DNA from: a phage
Length of the DNA: 64,000 bases
Reading direction: 5' to 3' (one strand)
Assembly: GCA_027263115.1 (NCBI GenBank)
Contig: GCA_027263115.1_3656.1
Notes under the pieces: generated by a model
Told to the model about the DNA's origin: nothing
Database searches by the model: none
What the model saw: the letters and a program-made list of their open reading frames with translations, nothing else
Made by a program: the position numbers and the translations under genes
Shown: piece after piece, positions 48,937 to 58,338 of the stretch
Numbering within the stretch: position 1 is the first letter of the stretch
How the letters are laid out: each line of letters starts with the position of its first letter

Positions 48937-50220
48937 TCATTCCAGAACCTCCCAAGTGTCTGGGTTAACATTTCGGACGCAGATACCGACAGGGAATTGG
49001 TAGTTGTTGTCTTCTGTCCTTGCTTGATATTTGAAGGTGACAAACTTGCCGATCATTTCCTGCATCCTGTCATAGCTACGCTCCTCGTGCGTGCCTTTCA
49101 TCTTCATTTTAACAACAACACCTTCCTTGTCAACACAGATAAGAACACCTTCATCATTCTTATCTTTCTCAACGTCAATAACTTTCACCTCTGCGTCGTT
49201 GAACTTTTTCCATTTCAATGCTTCAGATGTTCGCTGACCATACTCATATTTACCACAGAAGTTACGCATAATGGTACCTTCATATCCCTCAGACATAAAT
49301 ATACCAACAGACTCTTCGCACCGATCAACTGTGTATGCAATCTCTGCATCAACAACCTTAATATGATCAAGCATCAAAGAAGCAATAGCACCATTTGCCT
49401 CCATAAGATCCTTACAGCGTCCAGACTCTGTTTCAGGATCCCACCACACCTTATCGCTAGGAATATCGAAAATATGATACTCTAAGTCGTAGCTGCAGTA
49501 CCCTCCGTAACGCAAATCATCACGAACAGGCTCAACATCAACAGGAATGTCCATCTTGTTGAAGTTTTTGTATGTTGCTAAACCTGCTTTAATCGCAGCC
49601 TGACGGCGTTTTTTATCTGCCTTGTAGTCTTTATCGATCTCGGCCTGAATTTCTTCCTGTGTGCGCCACCGTTTAGCAAGAGACACTATTTTCTGCAGAG
49701 GCAGACCATGAATATAGAGCTCTCCGTCGAGCTGTTTAATCCCGGTGGTTAGGTGGAAAGAGCGAAGTTGCTCCAGAAGCTTCCCTTGAATAGGGTAGGA
49801 CTTATTACCACGGGAAATAAATTTAGGCTCACCATTCTGGAAAACAACAAGTAGACGAAGGCCATCTAACTTACGCAAGATCCAGCAAGGTAATTTAAGT
49901 GCCTTGCCACGCTTCAGGTAGTCATGCACCAACATGGGTAAAAGATCAACACCTTGCTCACAATCTTCCATACTCTCCACGTACCCGAGTCGGACCTGTT
50001 TTTCCCACTTACTGATCGCTTCCAGCTCGGCCTGTTGCTCAGCTGTAGTTTCATTAGCGCGACCCACGTTCTTAGGTGTGCAGATCGTCTCTTTGTATTG
50101 CAGTTTACCATCAAGCTTGCCAAACTCTACGATAACCTTATCACCATCCGTGAATACTTTCCACTGTTGGTGGCTGCCATCTTTGTTCAGTGCGTACAGT
50201 GTTGTTTTGATCTGATGCAT
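48937..50220 (-). CDS. ATP-dependent DNA ligase
   Basis: 427 aa; motif I KLDGLR, motif IV EGYEGTIMR, motif V LKWKK. Confidence 0.7.
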   Translation of the reverse strand: MHQIKTTLYALNKDGSHQQWKVFTDGDKVIVEFGKLDGKLQYKETICTPKNVGRANETTAEQQAELEAISKWEKQVRLGYVESMEDCEQGVDLLPMLVHDYLKRGKALKLPCWILRKLDGLRLLVVFQNGEPKFISRGNKSYPIQGKLLEQLRSFHLTTGIKQLDGELYIHGLPLQKIVSLAKRWRTQEEIQAEIDKDYKADKKRRQAAIKAGLATYKNFNKMDIPVDVEPVRDDLRYGGYCSYDLEYHIFDIPSDKVWWDPETESGRCKDLMEANGAIASLMLDHIKVVDAEIAYTVDRCEESVGIFMSEGYEGTIMRNFCGKYEYGQRTSEALKWKKFNDAEVKVIDVEKDKNDEGVLICVDKEGVVVKMKMKGTHEERSYDRMQEMIGKFVTFKYQARTEDNNYQFPVGICVRNVNPDTWEVLE

Positions 50221-50489
50221 TACTCGGCCTCTTCCTTAAAAATGTTAAACATCTCTTCTTTACTCATTACCAGCCAGTCCCCCATAAAATCAACAAGCCA
50301 ATCACCCTGGTACAAGACTAGGTTACCAAACGGCTCTACAAGCTCACACATGCGACGAAGATCTCTGGTCCGAACAGGTGACGATGTAAACACACCTGTA
50401 TCAATCCACCGTTGCAGATCAGATACTGATGAAGAGCTTCCGTCAAACTGGTGTGCTTCTACAGGTTTAGCAAGATTAAATAATGGCAT
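50220..50489 (-). CDS. hypothetical protein
   Basis: 89 aa. Confidence 0.5.
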   Translation of the reverse strand: MPLFNLAKPVEAHQFDGSSSSVSDLQRWIDTGVFTSSPVRTRDLRRMCELVEPFGNLVLYQGDWLVDFMGDWLVMSKEEMFNIFKEEAE

Positions 50490-50784
50490 TGCAGTCCTCC
50501 TTATCTAATAGGTCTTTTATCGGGTAAACAAGCAGGTGTGGATCGTAATAATTTATAGTTTTATTCTGCCACACTATGAACTTAATTACAACTAAATTTA
50601 CCACATCTTTATCTCCATGTAGTCCAACACACAGATTTGTCCATATTTTGTGGTTGAATACTTTGCTGTCGATGTAGATTTTAGTGTCAAACTTATCCTC
50701 TATCCTGCCTATGAGTTTAACCAACTCTTTCATCTGATCCCCAAACACAGCATCGTTTTCAAGATCTCTAGAGTGCTTGTACAT
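50476..50784 (-). CDS. hypothetical protein
   Basis: 102 aa. Confidence 0.5.
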   Translation of the reverse strand: MYKHSRDLENDAVFGDQMKELVKLIGRIEDKFDTKIYIDSKVFNHKIWTNLCVGLHGDKDVVNLVVIKFIVWQNKTINYYDPHLLVYPIKDLLDKEDCNAII

Positions 50785-50809: not shown

Positions 50810-50840
50810 CCATAATAAGTAAAGCCGGGTAATCCCGGCT
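50810..50840 (-). terminator. hairpin terminator (minus strand)
   Basis: AGCCGGG-ATTA-CCCGGCT stem followed by T-rich tract on minus strand. Confidence 0.45.
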
Positions 50841-50846
50841 ATGTTG

Positions 50847-51560
50847 TTAAATATACTCTGTTACATCCTTGAAGCTCGAAGGCTTCATGATCTTACCTTT
50901 ACTGTCAAGGAATATGATAACTTTATTACCGTTGTAGAATTCTTCCTTGGCAACAAAACCTTCATATCGACCATCAAAGCGTCGTTCAAGATCTTTAATC
51001 TCCAACTCGATTAGTTGTTCAGCAGGCATATCTGCACTGGCACCGTGTGAATACTGTAGATGGTTGACCCGTGCAAACTTGCTGTCATTCGATTTGAGAA
51101 CCTTACGCATCATCCCGCACACATCGCCGCGAAGCTGGAACAGTAAAGCTGTTGACAACTCCGCTAAGCGGTAAGCTGACGCTCTTTGCTTAGATGTGTT
51201 TTTAGCAGCGATCAGTGTATCATAGAACTCACCGATCTTGAACTTAAGACCTCGTGGATTATCAAACAGGTTTGACCACTTTTCGTGATTGTCATTAACA
51301 AGATAAGCGGCATAACTTGTGACAACGTGAAGATCGCAGGCCTCTTTTAGCAGGTGATCTCCACCATCACCTTTCTCCAGCTCTTCCAAAACTTCATTGA
51401 ACTCTTCCTCAATGAAGCTAAGCTGTAATTCGAACGGTGTGTATGATTTTTTCACTTTAGCTGCCACACGGTTCCAGTTTTCCACCCAGTTGGCAGACCA
51501 AAGGTAGTTTTCAGGTTGGGACAGTTTTTCCAGGTTGTCAATTAATTTGGTATTCAGCAT
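50847..51560 (-). CDS. hypothetical protein (possible MazG-like NTP pyrophosphohydrolase domain)
   Basis: 237 aa; acidic helix FIEEEFNEVLEELEKGD...LKEACDLHVV. Confidence 0.3.
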   Translation of the reverse strand: MLNTKLIDNLEKLSQPENYLWSANWVENWNRVAAKVKKSYTPFELQLSFIEEEFNEVLEELEKGDGGDHLLKEACDLHVVTSYAAYLVNDNHEKWSNLFDNPRGLKFKIGEFYDTLIAAKNTSKQRASAYRLAELSTALLFQLRGDVCGMMRKVLKSNDSKFARVNHLQYSHGASADMPAEQLIELEIKDLERRFDGRYEGFVAKEEFYNGNKVIIFLDSKGKIMKPSSFKDVTEYI

Positions 51561-51573
51561 TAAAGGTCTCCTT

Positions 51574-52335
51574 TTAAAGTTCCATAAAGTTTTCTACGGT
51601 CTCAATGAATGTTTTATCAGAGAAAGCGTCAACCGCCCCGTTAAACCAAACTGGGATGCCGCGATCCTCATACTGGTAAATATCACTACGTGAAATGCCA
51701 TTCTCCTCTAGATGCTGTGAGTCGTATTTGTTAACGATCAGCAGTTTGGTTCCCTTATTGCAGGCAGGGAATAGTTCCCAGTTAAAATTGATAACTGTGT
51801 TGGAACAACCTACAAGGATAACCATATCATTGCTAGTGAGAGAAGTCAACAGGTCATACATGTCTGTATACTTCGGAGCTACTTCTCCGAAGAACACCAC
51901 ATTAGGCTTAACCCAGATATACTTTCCTGCATCTACCTCAGAGTATCCAATGTCCCTAATGACGTTACTTCCTTCATCGTCATCATAGACTATTTCTGGC
52001 AAATACCCGTGGACATGTAGAATATCTTCATGTTTTACACCAGCACGCTCCAGCAAATCATCTACATTGGTGGTAAGATTGATCACACGGCCAGGCCAGC
52101 GGGAATACCACTCAGCGATCCGGAGATGCGCAAGGTTAGGATCAACACTGCCCAGAGCTACACGGCGTGCATTGTAAAAGTCATGCACCTTATAGTAGTT
52201 CTTGGCAAAGGTGTGGATGTTGCACACCTCATCGATGCTGAAATTCTCCCACATTGCAGTGCTACCAGATCGGAAAGTGGGAATACCAGATTCAGCGCTC
52301 AAACCAGCACCGGAGATAATAATCAGTCGTCGCAT
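51574..52335 (-). CDS. Sir2-family NAD-dependent deacylase / ADP-ribosyltransferase
   Basis: 253 aa; GAGLSAESGIPTFR, LTTNVDDL, LHVHGY; no obvious zinc-binding CxxC pairs. Confidence 0.8.
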   Translation of the reverse strand: MRRLIIISGAGLSAESGIPTFRSGSTAMWENFSIDEVCNIHTFAKNYYKVHDFYNARRVALGSVDPNLAHLRIAEWYSRWPGRVINLTTNVDDLLERAGVKHEDILHVHGYLPEIVYDDDEGSNVIRDIGYSEVDAGKYIWVKPNVVFFGEVAPKYTDMYDLLTSLTSNDMVILVGCSNTVINFNWELFPACNKGTKLLIVNKYDSQHLEENGISRSDIYQYEDRGIPVWFNGAVDAFSDKTFIETVENFMEL

Positions 52336-52343
52336 AAGTGTCC

Positions 52344-52694
52344 TCAGTAGATGTTTTGTTTAATCTCTATTCCAAACTTTTTAAACGAGTCAGCTGCAAG
52401 CATGAATTTACGAGCCGCTGATGGATTAGAAGTATGCACGAAAATCTTCACGTTGTCAACTACAGGAGGCTTACCAAATACAAATTTTTCCTCTAACATG
52501 CAGAAACAGTCGTACCCTTCGAAGACTTCTCCTAAATCGCTGTCAAAATGCCACTCAGAAACGCGCCTGTAGAGCTTTCTATTATCGTTAATAAAATCCA
52601 TGAACTCAGAAGAGTTCTTCAGCCAAAGAGCATCTTGGATTCCGTAATTTGACGGATCTCTCAAGTCATCCAGCCACACAATCAACTTCTTCAT
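52344..52694 (-). CDS. hypothetical protein
   Basis: Internal ATG (MKKLIVW) with ATGA coupling to upstream gene. Confidence 0.5.
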   Translation of the reverse strand: MKKLIVWLDDLRDPSNYGIQDALWLKNSSEFMDFINDNRKLYRRVSEWHFDSDLGEVFEGYDCFCMLEEKFVFGKPPVVDNVKIFVHTSNPSAARKFMLAADSFKKFGIEIKQNIY

Positions 52695-53608
52695 TGCATA
52701 TAGTCCTCGTTGTGAAAATAGCAATCAAGTATCTCACGGCGTTCCTGCTCCAGGAGGCAGTTCCACACATCTTCTGTGTAATTGCTACGAATGAAGTTTA
52801 CCATTCCGTAAAACTCTTCGTCAATACGTTTAAAGATATCATCATCCCAAATCTTCCAAGCTTTACCCCTCATTACGGCCTTCCGTGCCAAATAGTATGG
52901 AGACTTGATCTTCAGCTGCAGGTCATAAGGGTAGTAAGGCTTACGGATCATATACCCTTCGCCCATTGTTTCTGCAGCTAATTCTTTTGCATAGCTGAAC
53001 GGGATTTCACGCACAGTGTGAGGACGTTTTGCACCAAGGTATTTGGCAATCCCATCTAAAGCTGCTTCTGGTAGCATTATTCCAGAATCATTATATCTGC
53101 AACCTATCAAATATGCGCCATGGTCTTCTTGAACAATATGCGGATCTGAAGGGTGACAAATTTCAAACATGAATGTCATGTTTTCATTGCCCATAACCTT
53201 CTTGATAAGATCTAAATTACCACATTGCTCCCTGATGGTTTCTTTTGCGAGGTTACAATATGGGGAATCAAGAGACCCGGTTGTTGAGAACAATAGTTCA
53301 CCTTTATGAGATGATACCACACCGAGGAATCCGTTCTTTTTCTCTACCGCAGTAACAAGTTTACTGTCCGGTAGGTTGGTGGAGTTTTCTCCTAAGTTGA
53401 ATACTTTTGTGAAAGGCCATGCCACAACATTCCCCTCATTGCCAACAACAATACCTCGGCACTCCAGTAAACGCGGAGACAAATGCCACAGATCGTTGTA
53501 GAATACTTTTCTGGCATATTTATAGATCTTTAATCCAAGATCTGGATAATACCGACTGGTTACAAGACCTTTGTCTACTAGGTCATCTGCATTAAAATAC
53601 TTCATCAT
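52691..53608 (-). CDS. RNA ligase (Rnl2-like nucleotidyltransferase)
   Basis: Motif I KKNGF, motif IV EGYMIRK, motif V LKIKS; first ATG at 53626 lacks SD, ATG pair at 53608/53605 follows GAGGAA. Confidence 0.65.
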   Translation of the reverse strand: MMKYFNADDLVDKGLVTSRYYPDLGLKIYKYARKVFYNDLWHLSPRLLECRGIVVGNEGNVVAWPFTKVFNLGENSTNLPDSKLVTAVEKKNGFLGVVSSHKGELLFSTTGSLDSPYCNLAKETIREQCGNLDLIKKVMGNENMTFMFEICHPSDPHIVQEDHGAYLIGCRYNDSGIMLPEAALDGIAKYLGAKRPHTVREIPFSYAKELAAETMGEGYMIRKPYYPYDLQLKIKSPYYLARKAVMRGKAWKIWDDDIFKRIDEEFYGMVNFIRSNYTEDVWNCLLEQERREILDCYFHNEDYMQ

Positions 53609-53669
53609 ACGTTCCTCATTTGTCATTTTGTCAGTCTATCCTGCCACACAAATAACCTAGTGTCAACAC

Positions 53670-53698
53670 TTGAAATTAACAAAACAGTTAGGTATACT
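53670..53698 (+). promoter_or_regulatory. sigma70-type promoter TTGAAA-N17-TATACT
   Basis: In the 100-bp divergent region, upstream of the kinase gene. Confidence 0.5.
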
Positions 53699-53726
53699 AT
53701 CATTAAAATTAAAACGGAGGATTGCT

Positions 53727-54050
53727 ATGTCTAAAATGCTATATATCGTGCGTGGTCTGCCAGGGTCTGGCAAATCAACACTGGCAAATGCGCTATCTTT
53801 AGAAGGTCTGTATCCACATTTTGAGAATGACATGTTTTGGTATGACGATGACGGCAATTACAACTGGGATGCAAGTAAAGTAACACTCGCAGCAAAATGG
53901 TGCAAAGATAACGTAGAAGATATGATGCGTATGGGATACGACCGTATCGTGGTTGAAAACCGCCACGGTAATAAAAGCATTCATGATGTTCCAGACAAGG
54001 TTGTGGATCGTATGGAACGCCAGCTTAAAAACTGCATTAAACTTAAATGA
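53727..54050 (+). CDS. polynucleotide kinase-like P-loop kinase (T4 Pnk kinase-domain-like)
   Basis: 107 aa; N-terminus MLYIVRGLPGSGKSTLA parallels the T4 Pnk kinase P-loop; SD ACGGAGGA. Confidence 0.7.
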   Translation: MSKMLYIVRGLPGSGKSTLANALSLEGLYPHFENDMFWYDDDGNYNWDASKVTLAAKWCKDNVEDMMRMGYDRIVVENRHGNKSIHDVPDKVVDRMERQLKNCIKLK

Positions 54051-54057
54051 GGAATGT

Positions 54058-54612
54058 ATGAAATACTTTGTAACAAGCGATACGCACTTTCTCCACCAGC
54101 GGGTCATGGAGTTTGATTCATGTCAAAAACACAGATCTCAATATGATCACAATCTTGACAGTATGAATGCGGGAATCATCACCGAGTGGAACTCCGTTGT
54201 GTCACCTGCAGACACTGTGTTCCACCTGGGAGATATTGCGTGCACTAATGATAAGAATATCAACAACTTACTTCCAGATATTCTAAATATGTTGAACGGA
54301 CATATTATTCTTGTTCGTGGCAACCATGACACAAGGACGACTGTCAGAATTATGAAAGAGTTCGGTCATGAGGTTGTAGATTATTACGAGCTTCGCCACA
54401 ACAAGAATTTGATCTGTATGAGCCATTACCAGTTTGCAAAGTGGAACAGAAAGCCTCACGGATCAGTCCAACTGTTCGGTCATGCTCACGGAACCACACA
54501 ACAGTTGTTTGGCAGGCAGCTTGATGTCGGTTGGGATGTGTGGGGGAGACTCTTACCATTAGAAGAGGCATACCGTATTGCAATGAGTTTTGATATTGAC
54601 AGCAGGGAGTAA
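54058..54612 (+). CDS. calcineurin-like metallophosphoesterase
   Basis: 184 aa; motifs SDTHF, GDIA, GNHD; SD GAGGAA. Confidence 0.75.
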   Translation: MKYFVTSDTHFLHQRVMEFDSCQKHRSQYDHNLDSMNAGIITEWNSVVSPADTVFHLGDIACTNDKNINNLLPDILNMLNGHIILVRGNHDTRTTVRIMKEFGHEVVDYYELRHNKNLICMSHYQFAKWNRKPHGSVQLFGHAHGTTQQLFGRQLDVGWDVWGRLLPLEEAYRIAMSFDIDSRE

Positions 54613-57526: not shown

Positions 57527-57601
57527 GCCCTGTTAGCTTAGTGGATAAAGCAGCGGCCTTCTAAGCCGTTGACACTGGTTCGAGTCCAGTACGGGGTGCC
57601 A
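57527..57601 (+). tRNA. tRNA-Arg (anticodon TCT)
   Basis: Hand-folded cloverleaf: 7-bp acceptor, D-arm GCTT/AAGC, anticodon loop CTTCTAA, T-loop TTCGAGT, encoded CCA. Confidence 0.75.
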
Positions 57602-57605
57602 AATT

Positions 57606-57692
57606 GGGGAGTTATCCCGTAGAGGTAGCGGTGTAGACTGTAAATCTATTGTCATTGCGACTCGGGTGGTTCGACTCCACCACTCCCCACCA
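57606..57692 (+). tRNA. tRNA-Tyr (anticodon GTA), long variable arm
   Basis: Acceptor GGGGAGT/ACTCCCC, anticodon loop CTGTAAA, T-loop TTCGACT, CCA; 87 nt. Confidence 0.65.
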
Positions 57693-57805
57693 AATTTATA
57701 TTTTAGATGCATAAATAATACAGATAATGGCATTGATATTTATCGTCGTTTATACTAGTCACTAACTGCTCGAAAATCAGTGTCATTATCAGTATAATTT
57801 ACAAA

Positions 57806-57896
57806 GGAGGGTAGGGAGCAATGGTGCTCAAGCGGTCTTGAAAACCGTCCCATTGAGGATGACTCGATGATGGTTCGATTCCATTACTCTCCGCCA
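57806..57896 (+). tRNA. tRNA-Ser (anticodon TGA), long variable arm
   Basis: Acceptor GGAGGGT/ACTCTCC, anticodon loop CTTGAAA, T-loop TTCGATT, CCA; 91 nt. Confidence 0.65.
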
Positions 57897-57994
57897 CATT
57901 GTTGACCTTGTAATTAAGCGAAAGCCGGAAGCAGAACCGGATTATCAAATGTTACAGTCGTCATCGCCGACTAGCAACATGGTCAACATACTGA

Positions 57995-58093
57995 GCTAGG
58001 TAAGCCCTTTGGCAAGGGCGAGGATTTTTAATCCTGAAAATAGACGAGGTAGTCGTTGAATACATAGATGGTTCGATTCCATCACCTAGCACC
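57995..58093 (+). tRNA. atypical tRNA-like element (possible tRNA-Lys TTT with about 25-nt insertion, or pseudo-tRNA)
   Basis: Perfect 7-bp acceptor GCTAGGT/ACCTAGC, canonical T-arm GATGG-TTCGATT-CCATC, D-arm GCCC/GGGC, TTT-containing loop; about 99 nt; no encoded CCA. Confidence 0.35.
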
Positions 58094-58098
58094 TTTTT

Positions 58099-58174
58099 GC
58101 TGATGTAGCACAATTGGTAGTGCAATTGATTTGTAATCAATAGGTTGCAGGTTCAAGTCCTGCCATCAGCACCA
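58099..58174 (+). tRNA. tRNA-Thr (anticodon TGT)
   Basis: Acceptor GCTGATG/CATCAGC, D-arm GCAC/GTGC, anticodon loop TTTGTAA, T-loop TTCAAGT, CCA. Confidence 0.75.
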
Positions 58175-58175
58175 T

Positions 58176-58250
58176 GGCCCTGTAGCTGGAAGGTTCAAGC
58201 AAGCGACTCATAATCGCCAGACGGTGGTTCAATTCCACCCAGGGCCACCA
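58176..58250 (+). tRNA. tRNA-Met or tRNA-Ile2 (anticodon CAT), elongator-type
   Basis: Acceptor GGCCCTG/CAGGGCC with paired 1-72, anticodon loop CTCATAA, T-loop TTCAATT, CCA. Confidence 0.65.
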
Positions 58251-58261
58251 AATAGTAGATA

Positions 58262-58338
58262 CTCCGCGTAGCTCAGCTTGGTAGAGCGCCTGATTTGGGA
58301 TCAGGAGGTCGAGTGTTCGAATCACTCCGTGGAGACCA
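58262..58338 (+). tRNA. tRNA-Pro (anticodon TGG)
   Basis: C1-G72 acceptor, D-arm GCTC-AGCTTGGTAG-AGC, anticodon loop TTTGGGA, T-loop TTCGAAT, CCA. Confidence 0.75.

Follow-up and report, generated by a model that had tools for sequence, protein, structure and literature searches.

The stretch analyzed here, a window of 64,000 nt from contig GCA_027263115.1_3656.1 (NCBI GenBank assembly GCA_027263115.1), belongs to a Vequintavirus (rV5-like) phage. On its minus strand, at 51574–52335, it encodes a 253-aa sirtuin of the CobB/SIRT5-like type (class III) that lacks the zinc ligands. Our results show an intact class III-type active site on a zinc-free scaffold. According to our in silico analysis, this rV5-like coliphage encodes a real and probably active NAD-dependent sirtuin resembling CobB and SIRT5. 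We tentatively read it as a catalytically competent, zinc-independent class III sirtuin that would act as a deacylase, maybe with a preference for acidic acyl groups (probability around 0.45), and we consider this slightly more likely than a role as RNA 2'-phosphotransferase.

The interval 51574–52335 is a complete 253-codon open reading frame (ORF). The original prediction, made from the letters alone, had placed a phage Sir2-family protein there and quoted its motifs, and all of these are present (GAGLSAESGIPTFR, residues 9–22; TTNVDDL, 88–94; HVHGY, 107–111). What it missed is that the gene lies on the minus strand, the plus-strand translation containing many stop codons. The protein matches Pfam SIR2 (PF02146) with E=1.7e-26 and 93.7 bits (cut-off 24) over residues 9–181 and profile positions 1–178 of 180. 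It also matches PHROG 2162 ("Sir2, NAD-dependent deacetylase") with E=1e-108 and, in PDB, human SIRT5 and E. coli CobB with E ~1e-20, so the sirtuin assignment is far beyond chance. The top PDB match in phmmer is SIRT5, a desuccinylase/demalonylase (E=1.1e-20, residues 2–112 of the phage protein), while RefSeq labels E. coli CobB a "protein-lysine deacetylase/desuccinylase/lipoamidase".

To compare active sites, the protein was aligned with 120 homologues (47–97% identity), with CobB (from NC_000913.3) and with SIRT5. For SIRT5, the PDB alignment gives the same register for residues 2–112. The key residues comprise the G9-A-G-x-S13 loop, in which G9, A10 and G11 are invariant in 121/121 sequences, and G17, conserved in 120/121. 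Also invariant throughout are S16, F21, R22, C38, Y54, R57, T89, N90, D92, H109, K143, P144, F148, F149, E151, S178 and N202, together with W29, F53, R58, P66, N67, H70, G110, G130, D170 and G176. H109 aligns with the catalytic His of CobB (H147), and N90 and D92 with the Asn and Asp of its TQNID motif. Across homologues of 45–60% identity, about 50 positions do not vary, every catalytic residue included.

The acyl pocket is likewise of the cellular type. F21, V91, V146, F148 and F149 line the hydrophobic acyl-lysine tunnel; I131, V187 and F190 of CobB correspond to V91, V146 and F149. A76 of CobB is replaced by C38, an invariant Cys in the phage family where cellular class III enzymes have Ala (Ala86 in SIRT5), and the positions A76, I131 and V187 are engineered sites in the titles of CobB entries in PDB. 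Y54 and R57 align with Y92/R95 of CobB and with the corresponding pair of SIRT5. In both enzymes this Y-x-x-R pair holds the carboxylate of succinyl- or malonyl-lysine. In SIRT5, the pair is reportedly Y102/R105 (Du et al. 2011). The title of PDB entry 3RIY agrees with the succinyl/malonyl role of the pair.

The zinc site, on the other hand, is gone, as the original prediction had claimed. The phage sirtuin has only three cysteines (C38, C177 and C192) and no CxxC. In segment 112–142, between the catalytic HG and the (K/R)PxVVxFGE strand, it has none, whereas E. coli CobB has four between HG and RPHVVWFGE, and no Cys column is conserved there in the 121 aligned homologues. The first-knuckle position, C155 in CobB, is taken by a hydrophobic residue, Y117 (V, Y or I across the family), C174 corresponds to K138, and the stretch of the second knuckle, with C176 and C177, is deleted in the family. 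SIRT5 differs in having a full Cys4 zinc site and a long insertion in the zinc module. Among the features of canonical sirtuins, the protein thus combines a Pfam score above threshold and the NAD-loop, Asn, Asp and His residues with the absence of the CxxC-pair zinc site.

An AlphaFold2 model built on a 42-sequence alignment reached a mean predicted local distance difference test score (pLDDT) of 88.6 and a predicted template modelling score (pTM) of 0.87. In the model, strands 110–118, 124–128 and 142–146 take the place of the zinc ribbon with pLDDT >90, so that the small-domain β-sheet is predicted to be retained and the metal site alone to be lost. The uncertain loops are 23–27 and 205–212, the latter within a 9-residue insertion. 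A Foldseek search of the model against PDB ranked E. coli CobB first (PDB 1S5P and 6RXJ–6RXS; E ~1e-18, TM 0.75/0.84, 27–28% identity), followed by Sir2-Af1 and SIRT5. CobB shares with the phage protein the NAD motifs, the catalytic His, the Y-x-x-R pair and the three-stranded small-domain sheet, and differs by its N-terminal basic extension. In the structure comparison, the figures were 19.9 for PfSir2A, 17.7–18.3 for SIRT2, Hst2, SIRT1 and SIRT4, 14.9 for SirTM and 14.6 for SIRT6. NADase-type proteins gave 12.6–14.0 (SIR2-HerA proteins), 12.2 (ThsA), 9.9 (AVAST5) and 9.6 (FAM118B). The modelled fold is clearly nearer to the deacylases than to NADase-type SIR2 proteins.

In both sequence and fold, therefore, the nearest relatives are CobB, SIRT5 and Sir2-Af1, and the Tyr-x-x-Arg of class III is present, while the CobB equivalog level is not reached. 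We conclude from these matches that the protein represents a divergent subfamily of canonical class III-like sirtuins and is not a CobB orthologue. Loss of the conserved catalytic residues on precise alignment, or a fold prediction pointing to another family, had been set beforehand as grounds for abandoning the original prediction; the residues were kept and the predicted fold is that of a sirtuin.

The loss of all four zinc ligands, together with the replacement of Gln by Thr in a conserved NAD-site motif (Q89T), could be taken to mean an inactive remnant or a non-catalytic NAD binder destabilized by zinc loss. We regard this as very improbable. The invariance of about 50 positions, all catalytic residues included, speaks against it, as do the confidently modelled zinc-less module and the intact ORF with its own Shine-Dalgarno sequence within an operon. 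That the gene is retained in over 1000 phage records, spread over several families, is a further argument.

The distribution of the zinc site among relatives was surveyed in 68 sirtuin loci, grouped into 26 clades at 75% identity. In 24 of the 26 phage clades, the module holds 0–2 Cys and no CxxC pair, and nearly all of these sequences have TTN. The two most distant clades, from IMG/VR contigs (L068, 8001–8564; L069, 8001–8399), keep CxxC…CxxC, TQN and GTS, and up to 8 kb from them no RNA-repair seed family was detected. With their zinc motif, they look intermediate between cellular CobB and the phage clade that has lost it. Since they keep the zinc motif, TQN and GTS, a stepwise drift from a CobB-like ancestor is suggested, not an abrupt change of the active site. 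HMMER, run exhaustively against 1.84 billion cluster representatives, gave 5390 relatives at E≤0.001. Among the 147 usable sequences of the top 150, 94 have at least three module Cys and 47 have at most one. Gln occupies position 89 in 79 of the 94 zinc-type sequences versus 7 of the 47 zinc-less ones (odds ratio 30, Fisher p ~1e-15, not corrected for phylogeny). Both types share C38 and the GY motif of the module. Zinc loss thus appears to be frequent in the phage-associated branch, stepwise, and associated with a change in the NAD-site motif.

So far, only SIR2_2 proteins (ThsA, FAM118) were described without the zinc module, which in these proteins is lost entirely (PMC12700824; PMC8556138). 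Defence SIR2 NADases (ThsA, SIR2-HerA, AVAST5) and FAM118B share with the phage sirtuin the Rossmann core and the zinc-free state. They are without the whole β-module (PMC12700824), whereas the phage protein keeps the module and loses the ligands only. It carries no fused or adjacent sensor domain, it does not show the combination, typical of defence NADases such as ThsA, DSR1/2, SIR2-HerA and SPARSA, of an absent β-module with a SLOG, HerA, pAgo or long C-terminal partner, and no family of the PADLOC defence models matched it at E≤0.01. We did not find the loss of zinc ligands in the phage sirtuin clade mentioned in the literature, including the paper that defined the clade (PMC9503650), and both this loss and its association with Q89T appear to be unreported before.

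The main functional clue to the sirtuin is its neighbourhood. The gene is the third of a compact minus-strand unit that runs from an RNA ligase through cREC and the sirtuin to a MazG-like gene. The original prediction, right about a zinc-less sirtuin with catalytic motifs, had overlooked this unit along with the strand. The first gene (52691–53626, minus strand) encodes a T4 Rnl1-type RNA ligase of 311 aa (Pfam RNA_lig_T4_1 E=1.5e-14; TIGR02308 E=2e-9, under the cut-off), and its stop overlaps the start of the second gene (ATGA). The latter (52344–52694, minus strand, ATG at 52694) encodes cREC, a cyclic-phosphate-processing receiver-like protein of 116 aa (PF20274 E=1.5e-13; PHROG 1479), and carries the same annotation in OR062943.1. 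Its stop is separated from the sirtuin ATG by 8 nt with a GAGGA Shine-Dalgarno sequence, and 13 nt lie between the sirtuin stop and the ATG of the fourth gene, which is preceded by AAGGAG. This MazG-like gene (50847–51560, minus strand) encodes a "nucleotide pyrophosphohydrolase" of 237 aa recognized by PHROG 671 only (E=1e-21), with no match in Pfam, NCBIfam or PDB sequences. Its annotation is weak, as the PHROG match covers the C-terminal part of a 678-position profile. Six nucleotides past its stop, a consensus scan located a GC-rich hairpin (AGCCGGG-ATTA-CCCGGCT, 50823–50840) that resembles a terminator on either strand and probably marks the 3' limit of the unit. As judged from these junctions, the four genes are predicted to be translationally coupled. 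On the plus strand, a divergent gene (53730–54050) encodes a P-loop nucleotide/polynucleotide-kinase-like protein of 106 aa (Pfam AAA_18/AAA_33 E ~1e-5, under the cut-offs), with a calcineurin-like metallophosphoesterase of 184 aa downstream of it (54058–54612, plus strand; Metallophos_2 E=1.1e-6, 29.1 bits, cut-off 27).

This system corresponds to the type 2 sirtuin neighbourhood described by Iyer, Burroughs, Anantharaman and Aravind (2022; Viruses 14:1977, PMC9503650, section 3.7.3), "prototyped by Escherichia phage V5". The published set comprises a sirtuin, a T4-like tRNA/RNA ligase, cREC, a nucleotide kinase, MazG and sometimes a calcineurin-like phosphoesterase. All six components lie within 50847–54612 of the window, with the differences that MazG is identified by its PHROG match alone and that the kinase has a 29-aa in-frame deletion. 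These authors proposed that the sirtuin strips RNA 2'-phosphates in the manner of KptA (PMC9503650).

In such a scheme, a host anticodon nuclease or metal-independent RNase would cut a tRNA, cREC would leave a 2'-phosphate by opening the 2',3'-cyclic phosphate, the kinase would phosphorylate the 5'-OH, and the Rnl1-type ligase would seal the break. The 2'-phosphate at the junction would then be taken off by the sirtuin with the help of NAD+, giving ADP-ribose 1''-2'' cyclic phosphate. His109 would activate the ribose 2''-OH, much as it does when deacylation reaches its second step, and cREC, phosphoesterases and possibly a macro domain would degrade the product. The zinc-less clade would accordingly be no protein deacylase but the first RNA-acting sirtuin, an NAD+-dependent 2'-phosphotransferase that has converged on Tpt1/KptA. 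The yeast-like series of cyclic phosphodiesterase, kinase, ligase and 2'-phosphate removal would thereby be complete and would allow phages to repair tRNAs cut by host anticodon nucleases, and the loss of the zinc knuckles, Q89T and the GCSNxVIN strand would be adaptations that open the cleft to nucleic acid. We find both the enzymatic role and this wider picture of the clade possible but doubtful. The yeast Trl1/Tpt1 pathway offers a chemical precedent (PMC5824351). The chemistry is attractive by analogy: Tpt1/KptA is NAD+-dependent and works in two steps, and in both reactions an ADP-ribosylated intermediate would be resolved by the ribose 2''-OH, a step for which His109 appears suited. The invariant Y54/R57 pair, able to bind anions, could hold a phosphate. 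Tpt1/KptA itself has the unrelated fold of the ADP-ribosyltransferase superfamily, without sequence or structural similarity to the sirtuin, and would be a functional analogue at most.

The published neighbourhood and the tight translational coupling of Rnl1, cREC, sirtuin and MazG-like genes up to the hairpin argue for this scheme, which best explains the operon seen here. A cluster of seven tRNA genes (57527–58338), 4 kb from the sirtuin unit, fits it as well. ARAGORN reported in this cluster, among Arg, Tyr, Ser, Thr, Met and Pro tRNAs, a 99-nt "tRNA-???" with a four-base anticodon (atcc) at 57995–58093 on the plus strand, which may represent a pseudo-tRNA, a tRNA with an intron or one resembling frameshift suppressors.

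We then analyzed how general the association is, using iterated profile searches with nine partner families around the sirtuins of 63 IMG/VR loci, T5, alia, 7t3, D483 and the window. A clear linkage to RNA repair was found in 9 of the 26 clades, with three gene sets in rearranged orders. Clades 1, 5, 9, 11 and 15 have the ligase, kinase, MazG and phosphoesterase set, with or without cREC, at ≤3.2 kb from the sirtuin (one cREC lies at 5 kb, in locus L047). In clades 1, 9, 11 and 15, which are Mydo/Klebsiella-type phages, the order is unlike that of rV5, and in the Mydo-like phages the kinase gene is adjacent and all genes are co-directional. The T5-like clades 0, 2 and 10 have a HAD "Swiss-army-knife" RNA-repair phosphatase (PF18143, E=4e-20) 28–442 nt downstream of the sirtuin. 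In Salmonella jumbo phage 7t3 (L005, 1–6670), the sirtuin lies between a 2H gene and a Nudt16-like Nudix gene. Each of these three settings favours an RNA-directed role. Clades 7 and 18 show a partial set only, a phosphoesterase, accompanied in clade 18 by a MazG-like gene.

For 15 of the 26 clades, no partner gene of the RNA-end-processing families was found within 8 kb. The whole T5 genome has no RNA ligase, cREC, kinase, MazG or macro homologue of the tested families; its partner genes are limited to the adjacent HAD gene and a distant metallophosphoesterase. We therefore rejected a universal RNA-repair linkage of the sirtuin: the linkage is real and far from universal. Because it is real and has survived rearrangement, a functional coupling can be argued.

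The 15 clades without such neighbours and the missing RNA ligase of T5 speak against a Tpt1-like enzyme. So does the narrow acyl-lysine tunnel, unchanged from CobB: a 2'-phosphate carried on a nucleotide would have difficulty in passing through it to C1''. E. coli also possesses a KptA of its own. A kinase, a metallophosphoesterase and Rnl1 could also heal and seal RNA ends without any 2'-phosphate, as T4 Pnkp/Rnl1 and Clostridium thermocellum Pnkp do, which again weakens the case for a 2'-phosphotransferase. Finally, the activity of cREC is itself a prediction, the family having been defined by prediction in the 2021 jumbo-phage paper of the Aravind group.

The 7t3 locus can also be read differently. 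Its 2H gene belongs to the Pfam anti-CBASS Acb1 family (PF23474, E=1.7e-16), and this neighbourhood may therefore be an anti-defence island and not an RNA-repair system, a further point against the Tpt1-like role. Genes for NAMPT and for an NMNAT/ADP-ribose (ADPr)-pyrophosphatase lie 3–5 kb upstream of the sirtuin, and the locus as a whole (L005, 1–6670) looks like an NAD-centred anti-defence island. It suggests that the sirtuin might consume NAD+, or act on an NAD-derived signal or an ADP-ribosylated target, while cREC, 2H, Nudix and macro enzymes break down cyclic or ADPr-derived messengers. The DarG-like macro domain encoded in the genome of the window and the view that phage Macro, Nudix and cREC proteins mainly counter ADPr-derived signals (PMC9503650) point in the same direction. 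We nevertheless hold such an NAD+- or ADPr-directed counter-defence role to be unlikely, given a fold clearly nearer to the deacylases and no match to a PADLOC model. For a plain NADase, the conserved acyl-lysine tunnel and Y-x-x-R pair would be superfluous, and wholesale hydrolysis of NAD+ would harm a phage that depends on its host. No sirtuin is known to act on NAD-derived immune signals. Depletion of NAD+ is, moreover, a strategy of host defence (PMC13464706), which also argues against an NADase.

The macro-domain protein, which the original prediction had mentioned beside the sirtuin, is real: its gene lies at 253–711 on the plus strand (Pfam Macro 25.9 bits, cut-off 22; PHROG 335 E=1e-59). 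Its nearest relative is the macro domain of the antitoxin DarG (PADLOC E=1.4e-13; NCBIfam antitoxin_DarG E=1.7e-12, under the cut-off), and it also resembles TARG1/OARD1 and ADPr-1''-phosphatases. The gene sits 51 kb from the sirtuin, in a different transcription block made of small early-type ORFs, so the protein is probably outside the sirtuin unit. On sequence grounds, it is a candidate phage counter to DNA ADP-ribosylation by DarT, not a partner of the sirtuin. As it resembles both O-acyl-ADPr deacylases and ADPr-1''-phosphatases, we rejected it as a discriminator between the readings of the sirtuin.

These observations bear on a SirTM-like activity, in which the sirtuin would mono-ADP-ribosylate a host or phage protein and the distant macro protein would serve as eraser. 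Sirtuins can ADP-ribosylate proteins (PMC9503650), and a macro domain is encoded in the genome. Because the latter is distant, in another block and DarG/TARG1-like, it does not count as evidence for a SirTM–macro pair, and we rejected such a pair. The sirtuin is flanked by the cREC and MazG-like genes and not by an operonic macro gene, sirtuins of its clade have no coupled macro gene next to them (PMC9503650), its structure is not closer to SirTM than to the deacylases, and the deacylase-type His and Y-x-x-R pair are retained. A SirTM-like transferase is accordingly a rather remote prospect. The phage protein is neither a defence-type SIR2 nor a SirTM.

The original prediction had suggested that the enzyme could modify host or phage proteins, and in the form of a deacylase this is the reading that we slightly favour. 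It is favoured because clades diverged to 45% identity keep the lysine tunnel and the Y-x-x-R pair without change, because the fold ranks with the deacylases, and because most clades, T5 included, have no RNA-ligation partners. The 15 clades without an RNA-end-processing neighbour, and T5 without ligase, cREC or kinase, fit a self-sufficient enzyme with protein targets. As a deacylase, the sirtuin would bind NAD+ and expel nicotinamide, and the acceptor oxygen would attack C1''. The acylated amine that receives ADP-ribose on its carbonyl oxygen would most likely be a protein lysine with an acidic or short acyl group. The second step would be driven by His109, with release of the acyl group as O-acyl-ADP-ribose. 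The physiological targets would probably belong to the RNA-repair or translation machinery during infection and not to bulk host metabolism, since the gene appears to be co-translated with those of an RNA ligase, the cREC phosphoesterase and a MazG-like enzyme. This last step, drawn from genomic context, is the weakest of the proposal.

Several points weigh against a deacylase. The RNA-repair linkage of the nine clades is one of them: a generic host-protein deacylase does not explain why the gene is sited beside RNA-end-processing enzymes there, and placing the targets in the RNA-repair machinery is purely inferential. Within the active site, the Gln of TQN(I/V)D is Thr (T89) in 121/121 family members (TQNID in CobB, TTNVD here). 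The GTSxxVYP strand of cellular class III enzymes, which contributes to peptide binding, has become GCSNxVIN in the phage family (GTSGHVYP in CobB, GCSNTVIN here). Of the two NCBIfam models NF040867 and NF001753, one gave 120.9 bits for a cut-off of 243 and the other, the CobB equivalog, 100.8 for a cut-off of 320, both far too low. The zinc module is reportedly needed for deacetylation by canonical sirtuins (PMC12700824). Lastly, the literature on phage sirtuins consists of genome annotations and two comparative-genomics papers from the Aravind group, and we found no experimental study in it.

Three features around the unit were noted in addition. The kinase at 53730–54050 is 100% identical to a 136-aa homologue (241Ecol014PP; OR062943.1, BLASTP) except for the in-frame deletion of 29 aa (IVVSNTFTKEKHVQEYVDMAISHGYSYTV), which is flanked by two IVV repeats; it might leave this isolate with an inactive kinase, or it may be an assembly artefact. 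Downstream of the unit, an ATP-dependent DNA ligase (48937–50220, minus strand) shows Pfam ligase domains in residues 285–416 only, with no family detected for the N-terminal 280 residues, and a homologous DNA ligase accompanies the sirtuin neighbourhood in clades 1, 5, 9, 11, 15 and 18. Between this gene and the hairpin (50220–50784, minus strand), two small overlapping ORFs of 89 and 102 aa have no Pfam match; the closest relative has conserved both, annotated there as hypothetical genes.

Relatives of the sirtuin are widespread. The region of the window is 97.4% identical to Escherichia phage 241Ecol014PP (Vequintavirus) and 90–97% identical to 120 other rV5-like records, in which the gene is labelled "NAD-dependent deacetylase" or "Sir2-like protein". 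A tblastn search found homologues in 1015 phage records of several families, carried by T5, many Salmonella and Klebsiella phages, phAPEC8/alia-like myoviruses, and Vibrio and jumbo phages. The T5 gene T5p100 (clade 0) encodes a protein of the same PHROG 2162 family, 58% identical over the full length, likewise zinc-less and with TTNVD and GCS. It differs from the rV5 protein by the lack of the 9-residue insertion (203–211), absent in 104 of the 121 homologues, and in its neighbourhood, with the HAD phosphatase downstream and no RNA ligase, cREC, kinase or MazG anywhere.

The sirtuin family, its annotation and the neighbourhood hypothesis are already known, as the gene is 97–99% identical to annotated GenBank genes, a PHROG exists, T5p100 has been annotated since the 2004 T5 record, and the mechanism was published in 2022. 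Our analysis adds the family-wide loss of zinc ligands with the sheet retained, the association with Q89T and the zinc-bearing intermediates among phage sirtuins. It also adds a quantified, partial contextual link to RNA repair and the unchanged acyl-lysine tunnel as an argument against an RNA substrate. More than 1000 sequenced phages carry a homologue, T5 among them, as do many candidates for therapy (rV5-like, phAPEC8-like, Klebsiella and Salmonella phages). If the protein were a Tpt1 analogue, the sirtuin fold would have gained a new kind of catalysis, and phage counter-defence against immunity that cleaves tRNAs would have a new branch. As a deacylase, it would show that the canonical sirtuin fold can do without structural zinc and that large virulent phages reset the acylation of host or phage proteins.

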